A DNA stretch of 6,430 bases, from the IMG/VR virus record IMGVR_UViG_3300045988_030010, one strand, 5' to 3'. A model generated the notes under the pieces. The model did no database searches, had not been told where the DNA came from, and saw nothing but the letters and a program-made list of their open reading frames with translations. Below, piece after piece: positions 1 to 6,430 of this stretch. Every line of letters starts with the position of its first letter. The first letter of the stretch is position 1. The stretch comes from a virus. Made by a program: the position numbers and the translations under genes.

Positions 1-99
1 GATTTTTTTATTATCTTTGTAGTGTAACAAAAAAACAACAAGATTATGAAAAAAAAATTCTATCAGCTAGAAGTAACAATCAAGGGAACAAAAAAAAAC
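1..99. repeat. Terminal redundancy: 1..99 is identical to 6332..6430, so the sequence is circular or tandem. Unit genome length is 6331 nt.
   Basis: Direct comparison of the first 99 nt (gatttttttattatctttgtagtgtaacaaaaaaacaacaagattatgaaaaaaaaattctatcagctagaagtaacaatcaagggaacaaaaaaaaac) with the last 99 nt of the window gives an exact match. The repeat runs through non-coding sequence into the 5' end of a CDS, as expected for a circular genome cut with overlap rather than for att sites. Confidence 0.9.
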
Positions 100-231
100 C
101 ACCACGCCGTATTGATTAACCGATACGAAGACCTCGAAAACGCGAAAAGATTTCTCGAAACGTTAAAAGAAGAAATTAAAAACGATATCGAAAACGTAGT
201 AATCAAATCAATAAACCCAAAAATATTATGA
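46..231 (+). CDS. Small hypothetical protein (61 aa), member 1 of the tandem paralogous small-protein family.
   Basis: ORF MKKKFYQLEVTIKGTKKNHHAVLINRYEDLENAKRFLETL... Its stop overlaps the next start (ATGA at 228..231). It carries the family motif RYEDLENAKRFL. First gene after the promoter. Same strand as all structural genes. Confidence 0.55.
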   Translation: MKKKFYQLEVTIKGTKKNHHAVLINRYEDLENAKRFLETLKEEIKNDIENVVIKSINPKIL

Positions 232-425
232 ATCTTACAAAGTTAGACACAATATACATCGTAGAGATTCGCTACAATGTAAAACAAACAAAGTATAAAA
301 CAATCTCACGATATCGATACTATTCGTTGGAAAAAGCAGAAGAGGGCGCCAGGTTTTTTAAAGCGCAGCTAGGAAACCTAATAGACAGTATAATAATAAC
401 AAAGGAACATTTAGAGATATTATGA
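228..425 (+). CDS. Small hypothetical protein (65 aa), member 2 of the tandem paralogous small-protein family.
   Basis: ORF MNLTKLDTIYIVEIRYNVKQTKYKTISRYRYYSLEKAEEGARFFKAQL... ATGA overlaps at both ends (228..231 and 422..425). Family motif RYRYYSLEKAEEGARFF. Confidence 0.55.
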   Translation: MNLTKLDTIYIVEIRYNVKQTKYKTISRYRYYSLEKAEEGARFFKAQLGNLIDSIIITKEHLEIL

Positions 426-607
426 GTAATCACAGGTGGAATATCGAAATATCATACTATAAGTATCAGTTCGACGGAACAATAAAAAAAATAAGATACT
501 TCACCCACAGCGATAGTAAAAAAGAAGCGTTAAAAGTTCTAAATAAAATCGATGATGAAAGAATAAAATCACTAACTTGGAAACACTATATTTATAAGAT
601 ATATTAA
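422..607 (+). CDS. Small hypothetical protein (61 aa), member 3 of the tandem paralogous small-protein family.
   Basis: ORF MSNHRWNIEISYYKYQFDGTIKKIRYFTHSDSKKEALKVLNKI... ATGA overlap with the upstream ORF. Family motif RYFTHSDSKKEALKVL. Confidence 0.55.
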   Translation: MSNHRWNIEISYYKYQFDGTIKKIRYFTHSDSKKEALKVLNKIDDERIKSLTWKHYIYKIY

Positions 608-624
608 TCTCAAAAAAAAACATT

Positions 625-804
625 ATGAAAGAATGGTTCAAACAACATTGGAAAGACTTACTAATTGCAGTATTAACAGCCATAATAGCAGTACTTAGCG
701 CATGCGGAAGCGCATGGACGTTAGAAGGTAATCAAATAAACGTAAACAATCAAAAAAAATGTCAAAATGATACCATCAAAAACGAAGTACGGAAAGTTCC
801 GTAA
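625..804 (+). CDS. Small putative lipoprotein (59 aa precursor; mature peptide about 34 aa after Cys27). Absent from the supplied ORF track because it is under 60 aa.
   Basis: Translation from ATG 625 is MKEWFKQHWKDLLIAVLTAIIAVLSACGSAWTLEGNQINVNNQKKCQNDTIKNEVRKVP, stop TAA 802..804. It has a basic n-region, a 13-residue hydrophobic h-region and a canonical lipobox L-S-A-C, a classic SPase II signal. The upstream leader is A-rich (A9 at 612..620). It sits between family members 3 and 4. Confidence 0.5.
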   Translation: MKEWFKQHWKDLLIAVLTAIIAVLSACGSAWTLEGNQINVNNQKKCQNDTIKNEVRKVP

Positions 805-835
805 GAGAGAATGGATAAAAAACGCAAAACTGCCT

Positions 836-1024
836 ATGGAAAAATTCAGCGTAGGACAATGGAATTTACTATACGAAGCAGTAGACATCGACAATGGTAC
901 AATACTCACCGGATTTAAAGGTGCAATGAATTGTTGTTTATATTCAGAAGCTATCAACCTCGAAGAAGATATGAGAAAAAAACATATTATTTTATTAACA
1001 ATTAAAGCAATTAAAATTAACTAA
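836..1024 (+). CDS. Small hypothetical protein, member 4 of the paralogous family. Start taken as Met836 (62 aa). The longer track ORF 767..1024 would overlap the lipoprotein ORF.
   Basis: MEKFSVGQWNLLYEAVDIDNGTILTGFKGAMNCCLYSEAINLEEDMRKK... aligns with the others: WNLLYEAV versus WNIEISYY, DGT turn, ILTGF versus FILTLG, LYSEAINL versus FDSQKEAEDFL. Starting at 836 avoids an out-of-frame overlap with 625..804. Choice between 767 and 836 is uncertain. Confidence 0.45.
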   Translation: MEKFSVGQWNLLYEAVDIDNGTILTGFKGAMNCCLYSEAINLEEDMRKKHIILLTIKAIKIN

Positions 1025-1026
1025 TT

Positions 1027-1299
1027 ATGATTCAAACATTAGAAGACTGGCTTGAAAGACAAGATGTCGTACACGTTCGGGCAATCAAACAAGGGGAAGA
1101 AGATAAGTTTATCCTAACACTAGGACAATACAATGTATCACCCATGACATTCGATTCTCAAAAAGAAGCGGAAGATTTTCTAACGGAACATTTTAAATTC
1201 AATAACTTCGAGTTATCCATTATCGGAGCAATGTGCTCACTATTAAGAGACTTAGAAATACAAGATGAATTAAAAAACTCTAAAAAAGAAGAAAAATGA
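1027..1299 (+). CDS. Small hypothetical protein (90 aa), member 5 of the paralogous family. Its stop overlaps the VP1 ORF start (ATGA at 1296..1299).
   Basis: ORF MIQTLEDWLERQDVVHVRAIKQGEEDKFILTLGQYNVSPMTFDSQKEAEDFLTEHF... Family motif MTFDSQKEAEDFL. Longer C-terminal extension than the other members. Confidence 0.55.
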   Translation: MIQTLEDWLERQDVVHVRAIKQGEEDKFILTLGQYNVSPMTFDSQKEAEDFLTEHFKFNNFELSIIGAMCSLLRDLEIQDELKNSKKEEK

Positions 1300-3377
1300 A
1301 AGTAAGTATCGGGAAAAACACCCTCGGAGGTGGTAAAAAAATGATGACACGGTTAAATAATTATAACCGTAGTACACACGACCTTAGCTATGTTTGTCGA
1401 ACATCAGCAGCCGTAGGAACTCTAATTCCTACATTCTATCAATTAGTATTACCAGGAGATACCTTTCCTATACAAACTAGATGTCACACATTGACTCACC
1501 CGACAATCGGACCTTTATTCGGAAGTTTTAAGCAACAAAATGATTTCTTCTTCTGTCCTATGAGGCTATACAATGCCATGCTGCATAATAATGCGTTAAA
1601 TATAGGGTTAAATATAAAACAAGTAAAATTTCCTATATTTCCAATATCTTATAGACTTTACACCGATAAGAGTAAAATGAAAGGAAGTAATGAATCTCTA
1701 TTCAACGAGGTAAATCCAAGCTCACTAGTCGCATATACAGGAGTAAGAGCGCTCAAAACCTTAAAACCGTATGGTACTAACATGAAGGCTTACAACTGCA
1801 TTAAATTAATGATGTATTACGACATTTTTAAAAATTATTATGCAAATAAACAAGAAGAAAATTTTTATGTAATATCTGGAAATACCTACTATACATATAA
1901 ACAAATAGCAACCTCTCTTGTAGCGGGCAATATATCTTTAACAATTGCAAATAGTTCCGATTCCCAAAATAAATGGAATATCGTTACTACGGGTCTGCCA
2001 AACACAAAAGGTAGTACGGGTGATTATCCTAAAGTAAATAAGAATCACCAAGCATGGGTGTTAGCAATTAATCCTTACACACAAGATAAAAAAATTGGAC
2101 AAATCGAGGTAAAAGTAAACTTTAACACAGGGTGGCTAACCGAAACAGGAGGTAACGTAGGAGGTTTAAAAACAATTGCTATCTATGGAACAATAAACAA
2201 CCTTACAGAAAATAAAATTTTAACAAATATTACGGAAAAAGTGGAGACCCCTGTCGAGGGGGTAGAATATTACAAAATAAATACAACTACATTTCTACCA
2301 ACAGAACAAACATTTAGAACATACTTCTACATAAACGAACCAACTATGGCAGCAAGTGTAGAAGCGAGATATAACAGCTATAAGTTAGAGACAATTGACG
2401 ATATGAGAGAAAATATACTCTCAGCGGGAAAGACACAATATGTATCACAAGACCCGTTTATAGTCGATATTTTCAAACCAATACAAACAGAGAACGGTGT
2501 AGCACCAAGTTGCTCGCAACCATTAGTAGGGCTTGCTCTTAAAACATATCAAAGCGATATCAATACAAACTGGGTTAATACCGAATGGATTGACGGAGAA
2601 ACAGGAATTAATGCAATAACAGCTATCGACACATCGGGAGGAAGCTTCACACTCGACACCTTGAATCTTGCGAAAAAAGTATATACCATGCTTAACAGAA
2701 TTGCAGTAAGCGATGGAAGTTATAACGCATGGATTCAAACAGTATATACCAGCGGAGGTTTAAACCATATCGAAACACCTCTATATCTCGGAGGTAGCTC
2801 CCTCGAAATTGAATTTCAAGAAGTTGTAAACAACAGTGGAACGGAAGACCAACCATTAGGTACACTAGCAGGTAGAGGTATTGCAACCAGTCATAAAGGC
2901 GGCAATATCGTATTCAAAGCAGATGAACCCGGATACATATTTTGTATCACTTCTCTCACTCCAAGAGTGGATTATTTTCAAGGTAACGAATGGGATAATT
3001 ATTTATCGACACTAGACGATTTGCACAAACCACAACTTGACGGTATAGGCTTTCAAGACAGATTGTACCGAAGCATAAATGCAAATACATCTTACGAAAT
3101 GTCGAGCATGTCAATCGGTAAACAACCTGCATGGATTGAATACATGACAAATGTTAATAAAACATACGGAAATTTCGCACTTGTAGAAAACGAAGGTTGG
3201 ATGTGCCTCAACCGCATATTCGGAGATATCGATACATATACTACTTATGTATTTCCGCATTTATACAACAACATCTTCGCCGATACAGATATAACTGCGC
3301 AAAATTTTTGGATTCAAATTGCATTTAATACGAAACCACGACGAGTTATGTCAGCAAAAGTTATTCCTAACATTTAA
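1296..3377 (+). CDS. VP1: Microviridae major capsid protein (VP1 / F-protein family), 693 aa from ATG1296. Alternative start ATG1341 gives 678 aa.
   Basis: Longest ORF. The N-terminal region ...RSTHDLSYVCRTSAAVGTLIPTFYQLVLPGDTF matches the conserved Microviridae capsid N-terminus pattern (basic residues, S-x-H/F-D-L-S, hydrophobic stretch, LPGD). The size is typical of the large VP1 of Bacteroidetes-associated Microviridae. GGAGG at 1326..1330 precedes ATG1341, while ATG1296 is coupled to the upstream stop. Confidence 0.9.
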   Translation: MKVSIGKNTLGGGKKMMTRLNNYNRSTHDLSYVCRTSAAVGTLIPTFYQLVLPGDTFPIQTRCHTLTHPTIGPLFGSFKQQNDFFFCPMRLYNAMLHNNALNIGLNIKQVKFPIFPISYRLYTDKSKMKGSNESLFNEVNPSSLVAYTGVRALKTLKPYGTNMKAYNCIKLMMYYDIFKNYYANKQEENFYVISGNTYYTYKQIATSLVAGNISLTIANSSDSQNKWNIVTTGLPNTKGSTGDYPKVNKNHQAWVLAINPYTQDKKIGQIEVKVNFNTGWLTETGGNVGGLKTIAIYGTINNLTENKILTNITEKVETPVEGVEYYKINTTTFLPTEQTFRTYFYINEPTMAASVEARYNSYKLETIDDMRENILSAGKTQYVSQDPFIVDIFKPIQTENGVAPSCSQPLVGLALKTYQSDINTNWVNTEWIDGETGINAITAIDTSGGSFTLDTLNLAKKVYTMLNRIAVSDGSYNAWIQTVYTSGGLNHIETPLYLGGSSLEIEFQEVVNNSGTEDQPLGTLAGRGIATSHKGGNIVFKADEPGYIFCITSLTPRVDYFQGNEWDNYLSTLDDLHKPQLDGIGFQDRLYRSINANTSYEMSSMSIGKQPAWIEYMTNVNKTYGNFALVENEGWMCLNRIFGDIDTYTTYVFPHLYNNIFADTDITAQNFWIQIAFNTKPRRVMSAKVIPNI

Positions 3378-3388
3378 TACTTACGATT

Positions 3389-3724
3389 ATGATTAAACCA
3401 ACTTTTTTTGCAAGACCAATAAAAACAAATTACGAATACCAAGAAGGCGAAAGCATAGAAGACAAAGTTCGTAGAATCACCGAAAACAATGAACCAATTA
3501 CCGATGGTGCACCGATTATCTATACCAATAGAGATGACGGAGTGCTACCAGCATATAATATCCGTACAGATAGGTGGGACGTGGCACAGTCAGCTATGGA
3601 TGCAGTTAATCAAGCAAACCTTGCGAAATCTAAAAACTACGGAAAAATAGAACAACAAGAACAAAATGCCCTCGAATCAAAGGAGATTGGGGATACTCCT
3701 TCGCAACAGGATTCGGTGGGATAA
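3389..3724 (+). CDS. Hypothetical acidic protein (111 aa) between the capsid and pilot-protein genes. Possible internal scaffolding (VP3-like) analogue.
   Basis: ORF MIKPTFFARPIKTNYEYQEGESIEDKVRRITENNEPITDGAPIIYTNRDDGVLPAYNIRTDRWDVAQSAMDAVNQ... It is net acidic (about 20 D/E versus about 12 K/R), on the same strand, immediately after VP1, and followed by a terminator-like hairpin. The function is inferred from position and charge only. Confidence 0.55.
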   Translation: MIKPTFFARPIKTNYEYQEGESIEDKVRRITENNEPITDGAPIIYTNRDDGVLPAYNIRTDRWDVAQSAMDAVNQANLAKSKNYGKIEQQEQNALESKEIGDTPSQQDSVG

Positions 3725-3872: not shown

Positions 3873-5006
3873 ATGGAATTCAAAAAATCATTCATAAGTG
3901 GATTAGGAAGCTCTGCAGCTAGTACAGGAATAGGATTTATTGGAAATGCATTAAGTCAAGCATTCGGGCTAAGTTGGTCACCCGAAAGAGCTATGAGAGA
4001 GCAAGAAGCTTATAACAAAAGAATTATGGCTTTACAAAACCTATATCAACAACAAGCTGCCGCACAATCTCAGCAATATGCAAAAGATTATTGGGATTAC
4101 ACCAATGCGGAAAATCAAGTAAGACACTTGAAAAATGCAGGATTAAATATCGGCTTAATGTATGGACAAAGCGGAGCCGGTGGTATGGGAGCTAGCGGAG
4201 GGGCTCGACAAGAAAGTCCAGACCAAGCACAGGGAAATCCAATAGGAATGGCCTTACAAGTTCAACAACTCGAACAACAAAGAAGAATGAATGACGCTCA
4301 AATTGCACTAACAGAAGCACAAGCTAATAAAGCAGGAGCAGAAGCTAATAAAATTACTGGTGTAGATACACAAGAAGCCTTAAAGAGAATTGAAGAAGCT
4401 GGTTCTCGAATAGATTTAAATCTAAAAGAAGGTAATTACAAAGACGCTCTAACAGATTTAACAAAAGCTGAAAAAGAGGCTACAGACGCTCTAAAAGCAC
4501 TTAGAGAAATGCAAGAAGGTTTAACAAAAGCTGAAATAAGTCAAGCCTTCGCCATAGCAAGCTATTATAGCGAAAAAGCTAATACAGAGTATTGGACAAA
4601 AGAAAATGAAAAAATTCAAAATGAATATCTAAAAGACACTTACTATGACAGAGTAGACGCAGCATATTATAACAATGCCGTAGCAATAACCTTAGCAGCA
4701 AAATACAAAAGTGATAAGGAAGTCAACGAACAACAGATAAAACATCTTCAAGCAAGTATCAAAGAACTGGAAGCTCTCGCCGATAAACATAATTGGGATA
4801 AAGAAACGTACCGTAAACATGTCGAAGGTATGATTGAACGTTGGGAAGAACAAACCTTTAACGAAAGAATCGGACTAGGCCTGGAATTCGGAGAAAACAT
4901 TGTAGAAATGCTGTACAAAGGACGCAGAAGGAAAAGCAGTGTAAAAACCAAATCAACCAGACAAGGCAAGACGGTAACAACAGAAACCTATACAGAATCT
5001 TATTGA
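3873..5006 (+). CDS. VP2: Microviridae VP2-like minor capsid / DNA pilot protein (377 aa).
   Basis: Position immediately downstream of VP1 and upstream of Rep. Small-residue-rich N-terminus SFISGLGSSAASTGIGFIGNALSQAFG. Gly-rich tract GLMYGQSGAGGMGASGGARQ. Long predicted coiled-coil (EAQANKAGAEANKITG...KAEKEATDALKALREMQEGLTKAEI). Basic C-terminal tail. These are the hallmarks of gokusho/alpa-type VP2 pilot proteins. Confidence 0.7.
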   Translation: MEFKKSFISGLGSSAASTGIGFIGNALSQAFGLSWSPERAMREQEAYNKRIMALQNLYQQQAAAQSQQYAKDYWDYTNAENQVRHLKNAGLNIGLMYGQSGAGGMGASGGARQESPDQAQGNPIGMALQVQQLEQQRRMNDAQIALTEAQANKAGAEANKITGVDTQEALKRIEEAGSRIDLNLKEGNYKDALTDLTKAEKEATDALKALREMQEGLTKAEISQAFAIASYYSEKANTEYWTKENEKIQNEYLKDTYYDRVDAAYYNNAVAITLAAKYKSDKEVNEQQIKHLQASIKELEALADKHNWDKETYRKHVEGMIERWEEQTFNERIGLGLEFGENIVEMLYKGRRRKSSVKTKSTRQGKTVTTETYTESY

Positions 5007-5007
5007 T

Positions 5008-6138
5008 ATGTGTCTATATCCCACTTTTATTAAAAACCCAAAGTATAAACCTAATAAAAAAAATAAAGGGAAACCTCCTGTTTGTAAAGATAGGAGGCTT
5101 CTCTATATACCGGTGAAGTGTGAGTGCTGTATCGAATGCAGAAAACAAAAGCAAAGAGAATGGAGAGTCAGATTAGAAGAAGAGTTACGGTCGAACTTCG
5201 GATATTTCGTAACCTTAACCATTTCTCCAGAAGGTATCGAAGAATTAGAGCAAAAGACTGGATTAAAATGGAAAGAAAATCCAAACGAAATCGCTTCGAA
5301 AGGGCTACGATTATTTTTAGAAAGAGCCCGAAAAGATACAAAAAAGAGCATACGTCACTGGTGTGTCACAGAACTCGGAGAGGATAACGACCGAATTCAT
5401 TTACACGGCATTTTTTTCGGGCAAAAAAGTGCAGAACTGATAAAAAAACATTGGAAATACGGATTTTCATTTATCGGACGATATTGTAGCAGCAAGAGTG
5501 TCAACTATATCACAAAGTACATGCTTAAAGTCGATATTAAACACCCAGAATTTAAACAAATTGTATTAGCCAGTGCAGGAATTGGAGCAGGATACATGGA
5601 TAGACTAGATTATCTATGGCAAAAACAGAATTATAAAAATATCAACATAGCCACCTATACATTCAGAAACGGTACAAAAATGGCCATGCCAAAATACTAT
5701 AAAAACAAAATATTCACGGAAAAAGAGTGTGAAAAAATGTGGATTAATAATCTTAATAGAGGGTTATTGTGGATTTATGGAGAAAAAGTAAAAGCTGACG
5801 ACTGGAAAACTATCGACAATCTCAGAGAATATTGGCAAAGATATGGACGCGAAACAATGGGTGACAATCCTATCGCATGGAATGCTATGAAAGAACGAAG
5901 AAAAGAGGAAAAACAACGAAAAGCTATCGCCGAAGAACGTCGAAAAGCTGAAAAATTCAGCACGGAAAATCTAACAGAGTTACCGTTACAGGTCGATTTT
6001 CCTATGCAAGAGAAAGAGGAAAAATGGAAAGATATTATCAATCAAAATGTTAAAGATAATATGTGGACATTTGAACAAGTGAGAAGGTGCACGACAGCAG
6101 AGCATTACGACGCTTTGAGTGAAATTGAGGTAGCGTGA
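5008..6138 (+). CDS. VP4: Microviridae replication initiation protein (VP4 / gene A-like HUH rolling-circle endonuclease), 376 aa.
   Basis: Rolling-circle motifs: motif I FVTLTI (nt 5206..5223); motif II HLHGIFF (nt 5398..5418; HUH); motif III with two tyrosines, YITKYMLK (nt 5506..5529), matching the Microviridae Rep pattern Y-x-x-K-Y-x-x-K. The N-terminus MCLYP... carries the cluster C26, C38, C40, C41, C44. A K/E/R-rich C-terminal segment follows. The start is 2 nt after the VP2 stop. Confidence 0.9.
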   Translation: MCLYPTFIKNPKYKPNKKNKGKPPVCKDRRLLYIPVKCECCIECRKQKQREWRVRLEEELRSNFGYFVTLTISPEGIEELEQKTGLKWKENPNEIASKGLRLFLERARKDTKKSIRHWCVTELGEDNDRIHLHGIFFGQKSAELIKKHWKYGFSFIGRYCSSKSVNYITKYMLKVDIKHPEFKQIVLASAGIGAGYMDRLDYLWQKQNYKNINIATYTFRNGTKMAMPKYYKNKIFTEKECEKMWINNLNRGLLWIYGEKVKADDWKTIDNLREYWQRYGRETMGDNPIAWNAMKERRKEEKQRKAIAEERRKAEKFSTENLTELPLQVDFPMQEKEEKWKDIINQNVKDNMWTFEQVRRCTTAEHYDALSEIEVA

Positions 6139-6181
6139 AATACTACCAGACAGTAAACAGACAGTATTTTTAAATGTTTAA

Positions 6182-6275
6182 GGCGGAAAACTTCGTTTTC
6201 CTTAGTCGCTTCGCTCTGAAGTACGCTCTCGACGGCGGAGCCTGTTCGCTGTCAGCCTTGCAGGCTGGCGCGCAA
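6182..6275. other. GC-rich (about 60-65%) structured island in the main intergenic region of an otherwise AT-rich genome. Hairpins: GGAAAAC-ttc-GTTTTCC (6185..6201) and CAGCCT-tgc-AGGCTG (6253..6267), plus CGCTC direct repeats.
   Basis: Stems verified by reverse complementarity. The composition contrasts sharply with the rest of the genome. It lies 45 nt after the Rep stop and before the promoter. It is a candidate Rep terminator, replication origin / nick-site hairpin, or packaging signal. Confidence 0.45.
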
Positions 6276-6294
6276 TAGTTAAAAATGTTAATAA
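6267..6294. other. 28-bp dif-like motif GGCGCGCAATA-GTTAAA-AATGTTAATAA, a possible XerC/XerD recombination or integration site.
   Basis: Compared from memory with E. coli dif GGTGCGCATAA-TGTATA-TTATGTTAAAT. The left arm matches 8 of 11. The right arm contains the ATGTTAA core but offset by 1 nt. It is located in the non-coding region, abutting the GC hairpin. Low confidence, because the arms lack strong internal symmetry. Confidence 0.25.
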
Positions 6295-6319: not shown

Positions 6320-6350
6320 TTGACAAAAGGGGATTTTTTTATTATCTTTG
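6320..6350 (+). promoter_or_regulatory. Candidate promoter for the small-ORF operon, reading across the genome junction. As a Bacteroidetes type it is cTTG(6319..6322)-20 nt-TATCTTTG(6343..6350, repeated at 12..19). As a sigma70 type it is TTGACA(6320..6325)-17 nt-TATCTT(6343..6348).
   Basis: Motifs read directly in the sequence. The spacings fit the Bacteroidetes -33 TTTG / -7 TAnnTTTG architecture (19-21 nt) and the canonical 17-nt -35/-10 spacing. It lies about 25 nt upstream of the first ORF start at 6377 (repeated at 46). The downstream leader is A-rich with no Shine-Dalgarno sequence, as is typical for Bacteroidetes. Confidence 0.45.
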
Positions 6351-6430
6351 TAGTGTAACAAAAAAACAACAAGATTATGAAAAAAAAATTCTATCAGCTA
6401 GAAGTAACAATCAAGGGAACAAAAAAAAAC
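6332..6430. repeat. Second copy of the 99-nt terminal redundancy, identical to 1..99.
   Basis: Exact identity to positions 1..99. Contains a repeat copy of the promoter -7/-10 element and the first 18 codons of the 46..231 ORF. Confidence 0.9.
6377..6430 (+). CDS. Second copy of the 5' end of the 46..231 ORF (first 18 codons), truncated by the window end. An artefact of the circular overlap.
   Basis: Identical to 46..99 (MKKKFYQLEVTIKGTKKN...). Confidence 0.6.
   Translation, partial: MKKKFYQLEVTIKGTKKN

Follow-up and report, generated by a model that had tools for sequence, protein, structure and literature searches.

A coupled array of three mini-protein genes in an Alpavirinae-like microvirus: probable split form of a widespread two-domain protein

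What is the origin of a row of very short genes located between the replication gene and the capsid gene of a small single-stranded DNA phage of the gut, and what could be the role of their products? This question was raised by a DNA stretch of 6,430 nucleotides (nt) from IMG/VR (record IMGVR_UViG_3300045988_030010), the whole of which is referred to below as the window. From its letters and a list of open reading frames (ORFs), an initial annotation had described a tandem array of five divergent paralogous mini-proteins, encoded at positions 46-231, 228-425, 422-607, 836-1024 and 1027-1299 and occupying about 20% of the genome. In the present analysis, the first three of these ORFs, named o1, o2, and o3, were found to constitute a translationally coupled and promoter-proximal array of three single modules with the order strand-strand-helix-strand (bbab), in which o1 and o2 are paralogues. 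The variable array comprises o1-o3 only, being 562 nt in length or about 9% of the genome, and the series of five is interrupted after o3 by a conserved lipoprotein-like ORF at 625-804. Overall, the best explanation, to which a probability of approximately 0.7 is assigned, is that the locus represents the split form of a two-domain protein, composed of three coupled bbab mini-protein genes, and that the fourth and fifth ORFs (o4L and o5) stand apart from it. The units are classified below into type A (o1-like), type B (o2-like), and type C (o3-like), and the array is organized as follows.

46..231, plus strand: o1, type-A single-module protein of 61 amino acids (aa) with strand-strand-helix-strand order, based on an AlphaFold2 (AF2) model, substitution ratios and paralogy with o2
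228..231, plus strand: ATGA stop/start overlap between o1 and o2, within the junction 9-mer ATATTATGA
228..425, plus strand: o2, type-B single-module protein of 65 aa, full-length paralogue of o1
422..425, plus strand: ATGA stop/start overlap between o2 and o3, within the identical 9-mer ATATTATGA
422..607, plus strand: o3, type-C single-module protein of 61 aa, stand-alone equivalent of the C-terminal domain in a 102-aa two-domain protein

The relationship among the five proteins was examined by comparing the Smith-Waterman score of each pair with those of 1000 shuffles. The o1-o2 pair was the only one above chance (z 5.2, p<0.001, none of the 1000 shuffles scoring as high); o2-o3 gave z 1.8, and every pair with o4 or o5 stayed between -0.8 and 0.8. 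Profile-profile comparison by hhalign, using deep profiles and 40 column shuffles as controls, gave z 4.0 over 53 columns for A against B (E value 4.5e-4 over 55 columns with the first profiles), and the A/B alignment was essentially gapless along the whole length, with invariant Y, E, R, and I and a terminal IL. The A and B units taken together (AB) also aligned with the C domain over 26 columns (z 5.4), and this alignment follows the secondary-structure elements of the AF2 models in register. An AF2 model of o1, built from 28 AB sequences, was obtained with a predicted local distance difference test score (pLDDT) of 88.3 and a predicted template modelling score (pTM) of 0.71, and consists of strands at residues 5-13 and 20-27, a helix at 30-47, and a strand at 48-56, in agreement with the fold starting strand-turn-strand-helix that the initial annotation had proposed. 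The ratio of nonsynonymous to synonymous substitutions (dN/dS), estimated by the Nei-Gojobori method against sister genomes, was 0.05-0.53 for all five ORFs, mostly 0.1-0.2, at dS of 0.5-1.9 (0.19 for o1 against both contigs L030 and L031, 0.18 for o2, and 0.07-0.22 for o3). All five ORFs are real genes under purifying selection, with coding signatures against the sister genomes.

The split form was recognized by comparison with the relatives that lack separate units. In 24 relatives from IMG/VR, the gap between the gene for the replication protein (Rep) and the lipoprotein-like ORF (hereafter the TM ORF, for transmembrane) is occupied by one protein of about 102 aa or by two, in some cases accompanied by a stand-alone ORF of about 50 aa. 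This 102-aa family includes at least 395 clusters at 90% identity, all on microvirus-sized contigs (for instance P0061 on IMGVR_UViG_3300029614_000097), and has no model in Pfam, PHROG, or NCBIfam. The AF2 model of the protein, based on 119 sequences, showed two consecutive strand-strand-helix-strand modules, the N and C domains, with pLDDT 93.5 and pTM 0.80. Within the alignment of these 119 sequences, H52 and Y102 are invariant, and G51, R53, K77, A80, and K100 are conserved in at least 90%. The family shares with the window the slot between Rep and the lipoprotein ORF, a C domain homologous to o3, and one bbab unit per domain as in o1; it differs in that the window carries separate genes with ATGA overlaps, in which the N-side partner (o1/o2) is present twice.

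For the C side, the profile of the stand-alone o3 family aligned with the fused C domain over 37 columns with an E value of 6.6e-6 and z 7.8 (5e-5 with the first profiles). The o3 protein keeps the C-domain invariants, namely H-R-W at the domain start (within MSNHRW), S-K-K-E-A at the helix start, and K-x-Y at the C-terminus (KIY), and like the C domain it lies downstream of Rep as the final unit ahead of the lipoprotein ORF. These similarities identify o3 as the separated equivalent of the C domain in this widespread two-domain protein. With the first hidden Markov models (HMMs) of the N and C domains, o1-o3 did not rise above shuffles (o3 gave 4.8 bits, rank 81 of about 3000), and profile-profile comparison was therefore needed to establish the link between o3 and the C domain.

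Relatives of the array itself are rare. Scans of IMG/VR with o1, o2, and o3 gave no relative, and tblastn detected no match to o1-o3 in 29 IMG/VR relatives; the sole source of array relatives was a search of 5.8 billion proteins with o1+o2+o3, which yielded a handful. The AB-family profile recovered only 30 clusters among the 5.8 billion proteins, and an exhaustive AB HMM search among 1.84 billion representatives recovered 10 sequences, all of them family members of 61-65 aa apart from a single ORF call lengthened at its upstream end to 84 aa, and no remote relatives. The modules had no match in NCBIfam, and the AB and 102-aa family profiles found nothing below E 0.07 among Protein Data Bank (PDB) sequences.

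A total of 15 other contigs (L030-L038 and L040-L045) make up the sister genomes, in which module lengths, start positions, and ATGA junctions are all kept. The order A-B-C was found in four contigs (the window, L030, L042, and L043), A-C in five, and B-C in seven, each array being followed by the TM ORF, o4L, and o5; the copy-number variation that had been suggested for relatives is thus real. The A and C units of L030 (A-B-C) and L031 (A-C) are closely related, which implies that unit B was gained or lost recently. Every clade genome examined carries at least one pair of a C unit with an N-side unit, either fused or split, and two to four modules in total. The split-array genomes share with the window the TM ORF (80-95% identity) and o4L (73-89%, except in L040 and L041), whereas the fused-type genomes diverge in both (34-43% and 52-61%, respectively) even though their Rep (78-89%) and major capsid protein (MCP) are as similar to those of the window as in the split-array genomes, or more so. 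This divergence of the arm despite similar Rep and MCP points to block recombination, with the whole Rep-to-MCP arm being linked. Some fused-type genomes also hold stand-alone units of about 50 aa, namely the gap ORFs of L012 and L023 (MYTVIANAKTTEGKKIILRQTLKTKRACELFVKGAREIVEVVDYS...) and 51-aa ORFs of L007 and L019; one such unit is clearly a copy of the N domain (HMM E values 2e-14 and 8e-10), and another, of a further type, matched no profile. Modules were therefore split and duplicated in several lineages, not in that of the window alone.

The junction between modules is itself conserved. The 9-mer ATATTATGA is common to all module junctions and is read as Ile-Leu-stop in one frame and as ATG-A in the next. 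All three ATGA overlaps listed in the initial annotation are present, the third being located between o5 and the MCP gene at 1296-1299. Start codons are preceded by A-rich leaders and not by Shine-Dalgarno sequences. A programmed frameshift that would fuse the modules was considered and rejected: a slippery heptamer is absent, and ahead of ATATTATGA the two junctions have different sequence contexts. Bacteroides promoters reportedly carry the consensus TAnnTTTG/TTTG, and a candidate of this type is the sole full match to the -33 and -7 boxes on the coding strand, located immediately upstream of o1; both boxes are conserved in all eight of the sister genomes examined for them.

6320..6350, plus strand: candidate Bacteroidetes-type promoter, with -33 TTG at 6320-6322, a 20-nt spacer, and the -7 box TATCTTTG at 6343-6350 (a copy lies at 12-19 through the overlap of the window ends)
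6332..6430, no strand: terminal repeat, identical to 1-99

The window thus ends in a 99-nt direct repeat of its start, which represents the overlap of a circular assembly, and the promoter and the o1 start are therefore present twice in the window. The true genome is 6,331 nt, in accordance with the microvirus genome of about 6.3 kb initially assumed.

Downstream of the array, three further small genes precede the MCP gene.

625..804, plus strand: TM ORF, conserved lipoprotein-like or TM protein of 59 aa with lipobox LSAC, between o3 and o4L; not a member of the array
767..1024, plus strand: o4L, basic core protein of 85 aa, the true extent of the ORF 836-1024; not a member of the array
1027..1299, plus strand: o5, acidic core protein of 90 aa (isoelectric point, pI, 4.6), ATGA-coupled to the MCP gene; not a member of the variable array

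These three genes are conserved in about 24 of the 29 IMG/VR relatives, in the absence of o1-o3, in the order Rep, variable gap, TM ORF, o4L, o5, MCP, o111 (a 111-aa ORF), and pilot protein, with o4L and o5 in single copy. Both o4L and o5 are separate core genes. The coordinates given at first were correct for o1, o2, o3, and o5, but position 836 is an internal ATG of o4L: tblastn matches cover residues 1-83 in 24 relatives, 37 columns including the N-terminal 16 residues are invariant, and MIPSxTKYGKFRKxEW is unchanged in all 12 aligned relatives (dN/dS 0.05-0.17). Every clade member has a conserved o5; in distant relatives its conservation is weak, and a prophage of Phocaeicola carries it as well. 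In both the distant relatives and the prophage, the o5-like gene is the neighbour of the MCP gene. The o4L and o5 profiles found nothing below E 0.07 among PDB sequences. The TM ORF contains a hydrophobic stretch resembling a signal peptide and shares 38 nt with o4L, which is read in a different frame; the database matches of the TM ORF were weak (Rz-like spanin PHROG, E 0.006; lipo_LytA, E 0.037), and a comparable lipobox-bearing ORF stands just before the o5-like gene in free distant relatives. It is a candidate for a lysis or envelope-acting lipoprotein. Unexpectedly, hhalign aligned 18 columns of o5 with the TM ORF at a score of 26 (E 1.7e-4), which is probably a match of the hydrophobic segment of o5 (ELSIIGAMCSLL) with the TM helix and suggests that o5 may contain a membrane-associating or buried hydrophobic helix.

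Could all five ORFs nevertheless be diverged tandem duplicates of a single ancestral mini-protein? Such an origin would be expected to leave similarity in each member, and for o5 some similarity was detected: its profile aligned with AB with z 5.4 over 18 columns and with C with z 6.8 over 22 columns, both above shuffles at an HH probability of about 20% or less, and the three alignments AB-C, AB-o5, and C-o5 agree with one another (AB residue 26 corresponds to C residue 23 and o5 residue 41). The conserved block proposed for all five proteins is therefore retained as a local motif of o1, o2, o3, and o5 (hhalign z 5.4-6.8), composed of the end of strand 2 and an S/D-x-x-E-A helix cap (o5 residues around 33-54). 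A likeness of 18-22 columns that centers on a helix N-cap could, however, be convergent. For o4L even the motif is missing; its profile matched no module (z 0.5 with AB and 0.9 with C; z 3.7 with the N module over just 12 columns), its pairwise z values were near 0, and the real protein carries a conserved basic N-terminal extension of 30 residues. Crude alignment-averaged Chou-Fasman prediction gave o4L a basic tail and a possible strand-strand-helix-strand core, and o5 a helix-strand-strand-helix followed by more helices, but this method reached a three-state accuracy (Q3) of 0.63-0.75 on calibration families and is too weak as evidence. In addition, o4L and o5 are single-copy genes conserved in about 24 relatives without o1-o3, o5 extends to distant relatives and the prophage, and the lipoprotein ORF breaks the series. 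A common origin of all five is thus very improbable; the paralogy claimed for the five holds for o1-o2, weakly for AB-C, and for o5 at the level of the motif. Still less probable, to a negligible degree, is that o1-o3 are chance ORFs of an AT-rich intergenic region. They are short (61-65 aa), rich in AT (GC content of about 0.30), and without a database family, but their substitution pattern (dN/dS 0.07-0.22 at dS 0.5-1.9) refutes this reading, lengths, starts, and ATGA junctions are conserved in the 15 other contigs, the AF2 model is confident, and the reverse-strand ORFs are not conserved features.

Assignment of the modules to a known domain, of YegP/DUF1508, SPOR, or HicB type, was likewise considered. 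It was prompted by an S-x-x-Y-x-S-x-x-AE-x-G pattern noted initially in o2, a sub-threshold SPOR match of o1 (16.9 bits against a cutoff of 21 bits, E 0.008), and a HicB-like_2 match of one AB member (E 0.006). The likeness to YegP/DUF1508 is superficial, consisting in a size of about 100-110 aa, two units of about 50 aa, and an S-x-x-x-A helix start after a strand. DUF1508 (PF07411) gave no match at E<=1 for o2 or the 28 AB members and none at E<=0.1 for the 119 two-domain members, and fold similarity to solved YegP-like structures was not found. SPOR (PF05036) matched just one of the 28 AB members and one of the 119 two-domain members, with o1 below the gathering threshold, and the HicB relationship did not hold up. 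Membership in any of these families is accordingly most unlikely. Of greater weight is the idea that the modules are host-directed inhibitors, used for anti-defence, takeover, or superinfection exclusion and retargeted by shuffling of cassettes. Models for such proteins are tiny dimeric phage inhibitors, such as p56 of phages phi29 and VMY22, an inhibitor of uracil-DNA glycosylase with an acidic, DNA-mimicking surface, and the T4 antitoxin Dmd. The promoter-proximal position of the modules, the variation in copy number and type among otherwise similar genomes, the confinement of the family to microviruses without cellular homologues, and the filling of the slot in distant relatives by different small proteins are all in line with this idea. 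The acidic surface of p56 is, however, not matched by the modules, of which B and C are basic (median pI 6.1 for A, 8.9 for B, and 9.7 for C); a C-type unit with its invariants is present in every clade genome under selection as strong as that on core genes, which is atypical for dispensable anti-defence genes; and an experimental or database link to any defence system is absent. A host-directed role of this kind is possible, though less likely than not.

Against the origin by splitting of a two-domain protein, several observations have to be set. The AB-C similarity has an HH probability of only about 17%, and the charge differs between the A, B, and C units. AB and the N domain showed no similarity (hhalign score 9.6, z 0.5; HMM scores around 0 bits), the agreement of o1/o2 with the N domain being in position and in the bbab order of secondary structure only, and the N and C domains have no mutual sequence similarity (hhalign z 0.2). 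In distant relatives and the Phocaeicola prophage, the slot is filled by different small ORFs, whose sequences show the strand-strand-helix-strand pattern but not the C-type invariants, which argues against a strictly essential conserved function.

According to the split-protein explanation, positions 46-607 would form a promoter-proximal coupled operon corresponding to the 102-aa protein with two bbab units, which in most related Bacteroidales microviruses is sited between Rep and the lipoprotein ORF. In terms of position and fold, o1 and o2 would stand in for the N-terminal domain. The ATGA overlaps within ATATTATGA would couple the translation of successive units, and the products may associate into A-C and/or B-C heterodimers with the same two-domain body as the fused protein, as predicted by the 'Rosetta stone' logic of gene fusion. 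The conserved ATATTATGA junction may allow whole modules to be gained or lost, which would account for the A-B-C, A-C, and B-C arrays. What had been described as old, fast-diverging duplicates is better replaced by a split two-domain protein with one extra paralogous N-side partner; likewise, the notion of coupled, tandem, divergent mini-proteins, unusual for a microvirus, is kept for o1-o3 but not for all five.

With regard to function, the modules are unlikely to be enzymes, given their small size and the scarcity of conserved polar residues. They would rather be non-enzymatic binding proteins, made first from the one recognizable Bacteroidetes-type promoter of the genome. The strongly basic nature of the C unit (pI 9.7) and its invariant His-Arg-Trp, Lys-Lys, and Lys-x-Tyr suggest that it may bind nucleic acid or an acidic partner. 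A helper role in replication or packaging, for which gokushovirus VP5 and phiX174 C are the positional analogues, and a host-directed role in takeover or anti-defence appear about equally likely, each being a reasonable possibility short of an even chance: the universal presence and purifying selection favor the former, and the varying type and number together with the replacement in distant relatives favor the latter. A more far-reaching proposal is that the Rep-to-lipoprotein slot of Bacteroidales microviruses is a dedicated modular locus in which bbab units are fused, split, duplicated, and swapped (two to four per genome) through ATATTATGA, giving different heterodimeric binders that neutralize a host factor or defence; it would be the first locus for anti-defence or takeover described in Microviridae, with an architecture without match among solved structures. 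This proposal is speculative and on the whole unlikely.

The window is a complete circular microvirus genome. It encodes an F-type MCP at 1296-3377 (Pfam Phage_F; PHROG 514, E 9e-47), a pilot protein at 3873-5006, and a Rep protein at 5008-6138 (REP_ORF2-G2P). The nearest annotated phage is Dulem virus 224, with an MCP identity of 58%; nucleotide searches with the whole window and with 1-1300 against 50,697 phage records gave zero matches. A 44-kb contig of a Phocaeicola metagenome-assembled genome (L039, CAZAUU010000012.1) contains an integrated relative with host genes on its flanks, which points to a Bacteroidales host. The match to Dulem virus 224, this integrated relative, and the Bacteroidetes-type promoter altogether indicate an Alpavirinae-like virus with a Bacteroidales host. 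The junctions of the L039 prophage fall in the intergenic region between Rep and the array. Its locus contains neither the TM ORF nor o4L, and a single acidic 59-aa ORF (3097-3276) with the strand-strand-helix-strand pattern is located directly upstream of the o5-like gene (3289-3552).

Mosaicism is strong among these genomes (L001-L045). For the MCP, identity to the window forms roughly two groups (about 83-90% and about 57-65%), and for the pilot protein it lies anywhere between 46% and 93%. The similarities of Rep, o111, and the accessory arm follow neither of the two, which indicates frequent block recombination among these microviruses. The o111 ORF (3389-3724, plus strand), directly 3' of the MCP gene, is the most conserved small protein of the clade, with an identity of 76-93% even where MCP is only about 60% identical, and has no family match. 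It occupies the position at which a VP3-like scaffold has been considered possible in Alpavirinae, downstream of VP1 (Roux et al. 2012, PMC3394797). A GC-rich stretch at 6174-6278, just 3' of the Rep stop, is kept across relatives, where it is readable as a pseudo-ORF (MFKAENFVFLSRFA...), and includes a hairpin, CAGCCT-tgc-AGGCTG, at 6253-6267 with a perfect 6-bp stem and a 3-nt loop. This stretch may be an origin or a recombination element. A dif-like (XerC/D) site within it is disfavored, as the match to Escherichia coli dif was 14/28, below the genome-wide background of 17/28, and the core of the element is missing from the Phocaeicola prophage locus.

Among known systems, VP5 of gokushoviruses and protein C of phiX174 are small replication-to-packaging factors encoded next to Rep. 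The array resembles them in being the first coding sequence after Rep and an intergenic promoter and in the size of its products, about 60-100 aa, but differs in that the modules match no microvirus small-protein family in Pfam, PHROG, or NCBIfam. The gokushovirus VP5 is a small gene directly downstream of VP4 (Rep), and only VP1, VP2, and VP4 were recognizable in Alpavirinae (Roux et al. 2012, PMC3394797). The accessory repertoires of microviruses are described as limited, with small proteins of about 65 aa mostly left unassigned (Kirchberger et al. 2022, PMC9239249). Literature searches for the module family and for paralogous arrays in microviruses yielded no description of either.

Microviruses are among the most abundant phages of the gut. 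For this group, a widespread and previously unannotated two-domain family of at least 395 clusters is now defined, together with a confident structural model, and the proposed five paralogues are corrected to three members plus a motif shared with o5. In one sub-lineage the two-domain protein would be represented by separate, coupled single-domain genes plus one additional paralogue, and the copy number of the modules varies between sister genomes. The array falls within the known phenomenon of small, fast-evolving accessory proteins of phages, and is notable for its link, through gene fission or fusion, to a large uncharacterised microvirus family. With three genes of about 190 nt each in a genome of 6.3 kb, it offers a handle on a step of alpavirus biology, and it would provide a clean natural example of gene fission/fusion, from which an interaction between the proteins is predicted.

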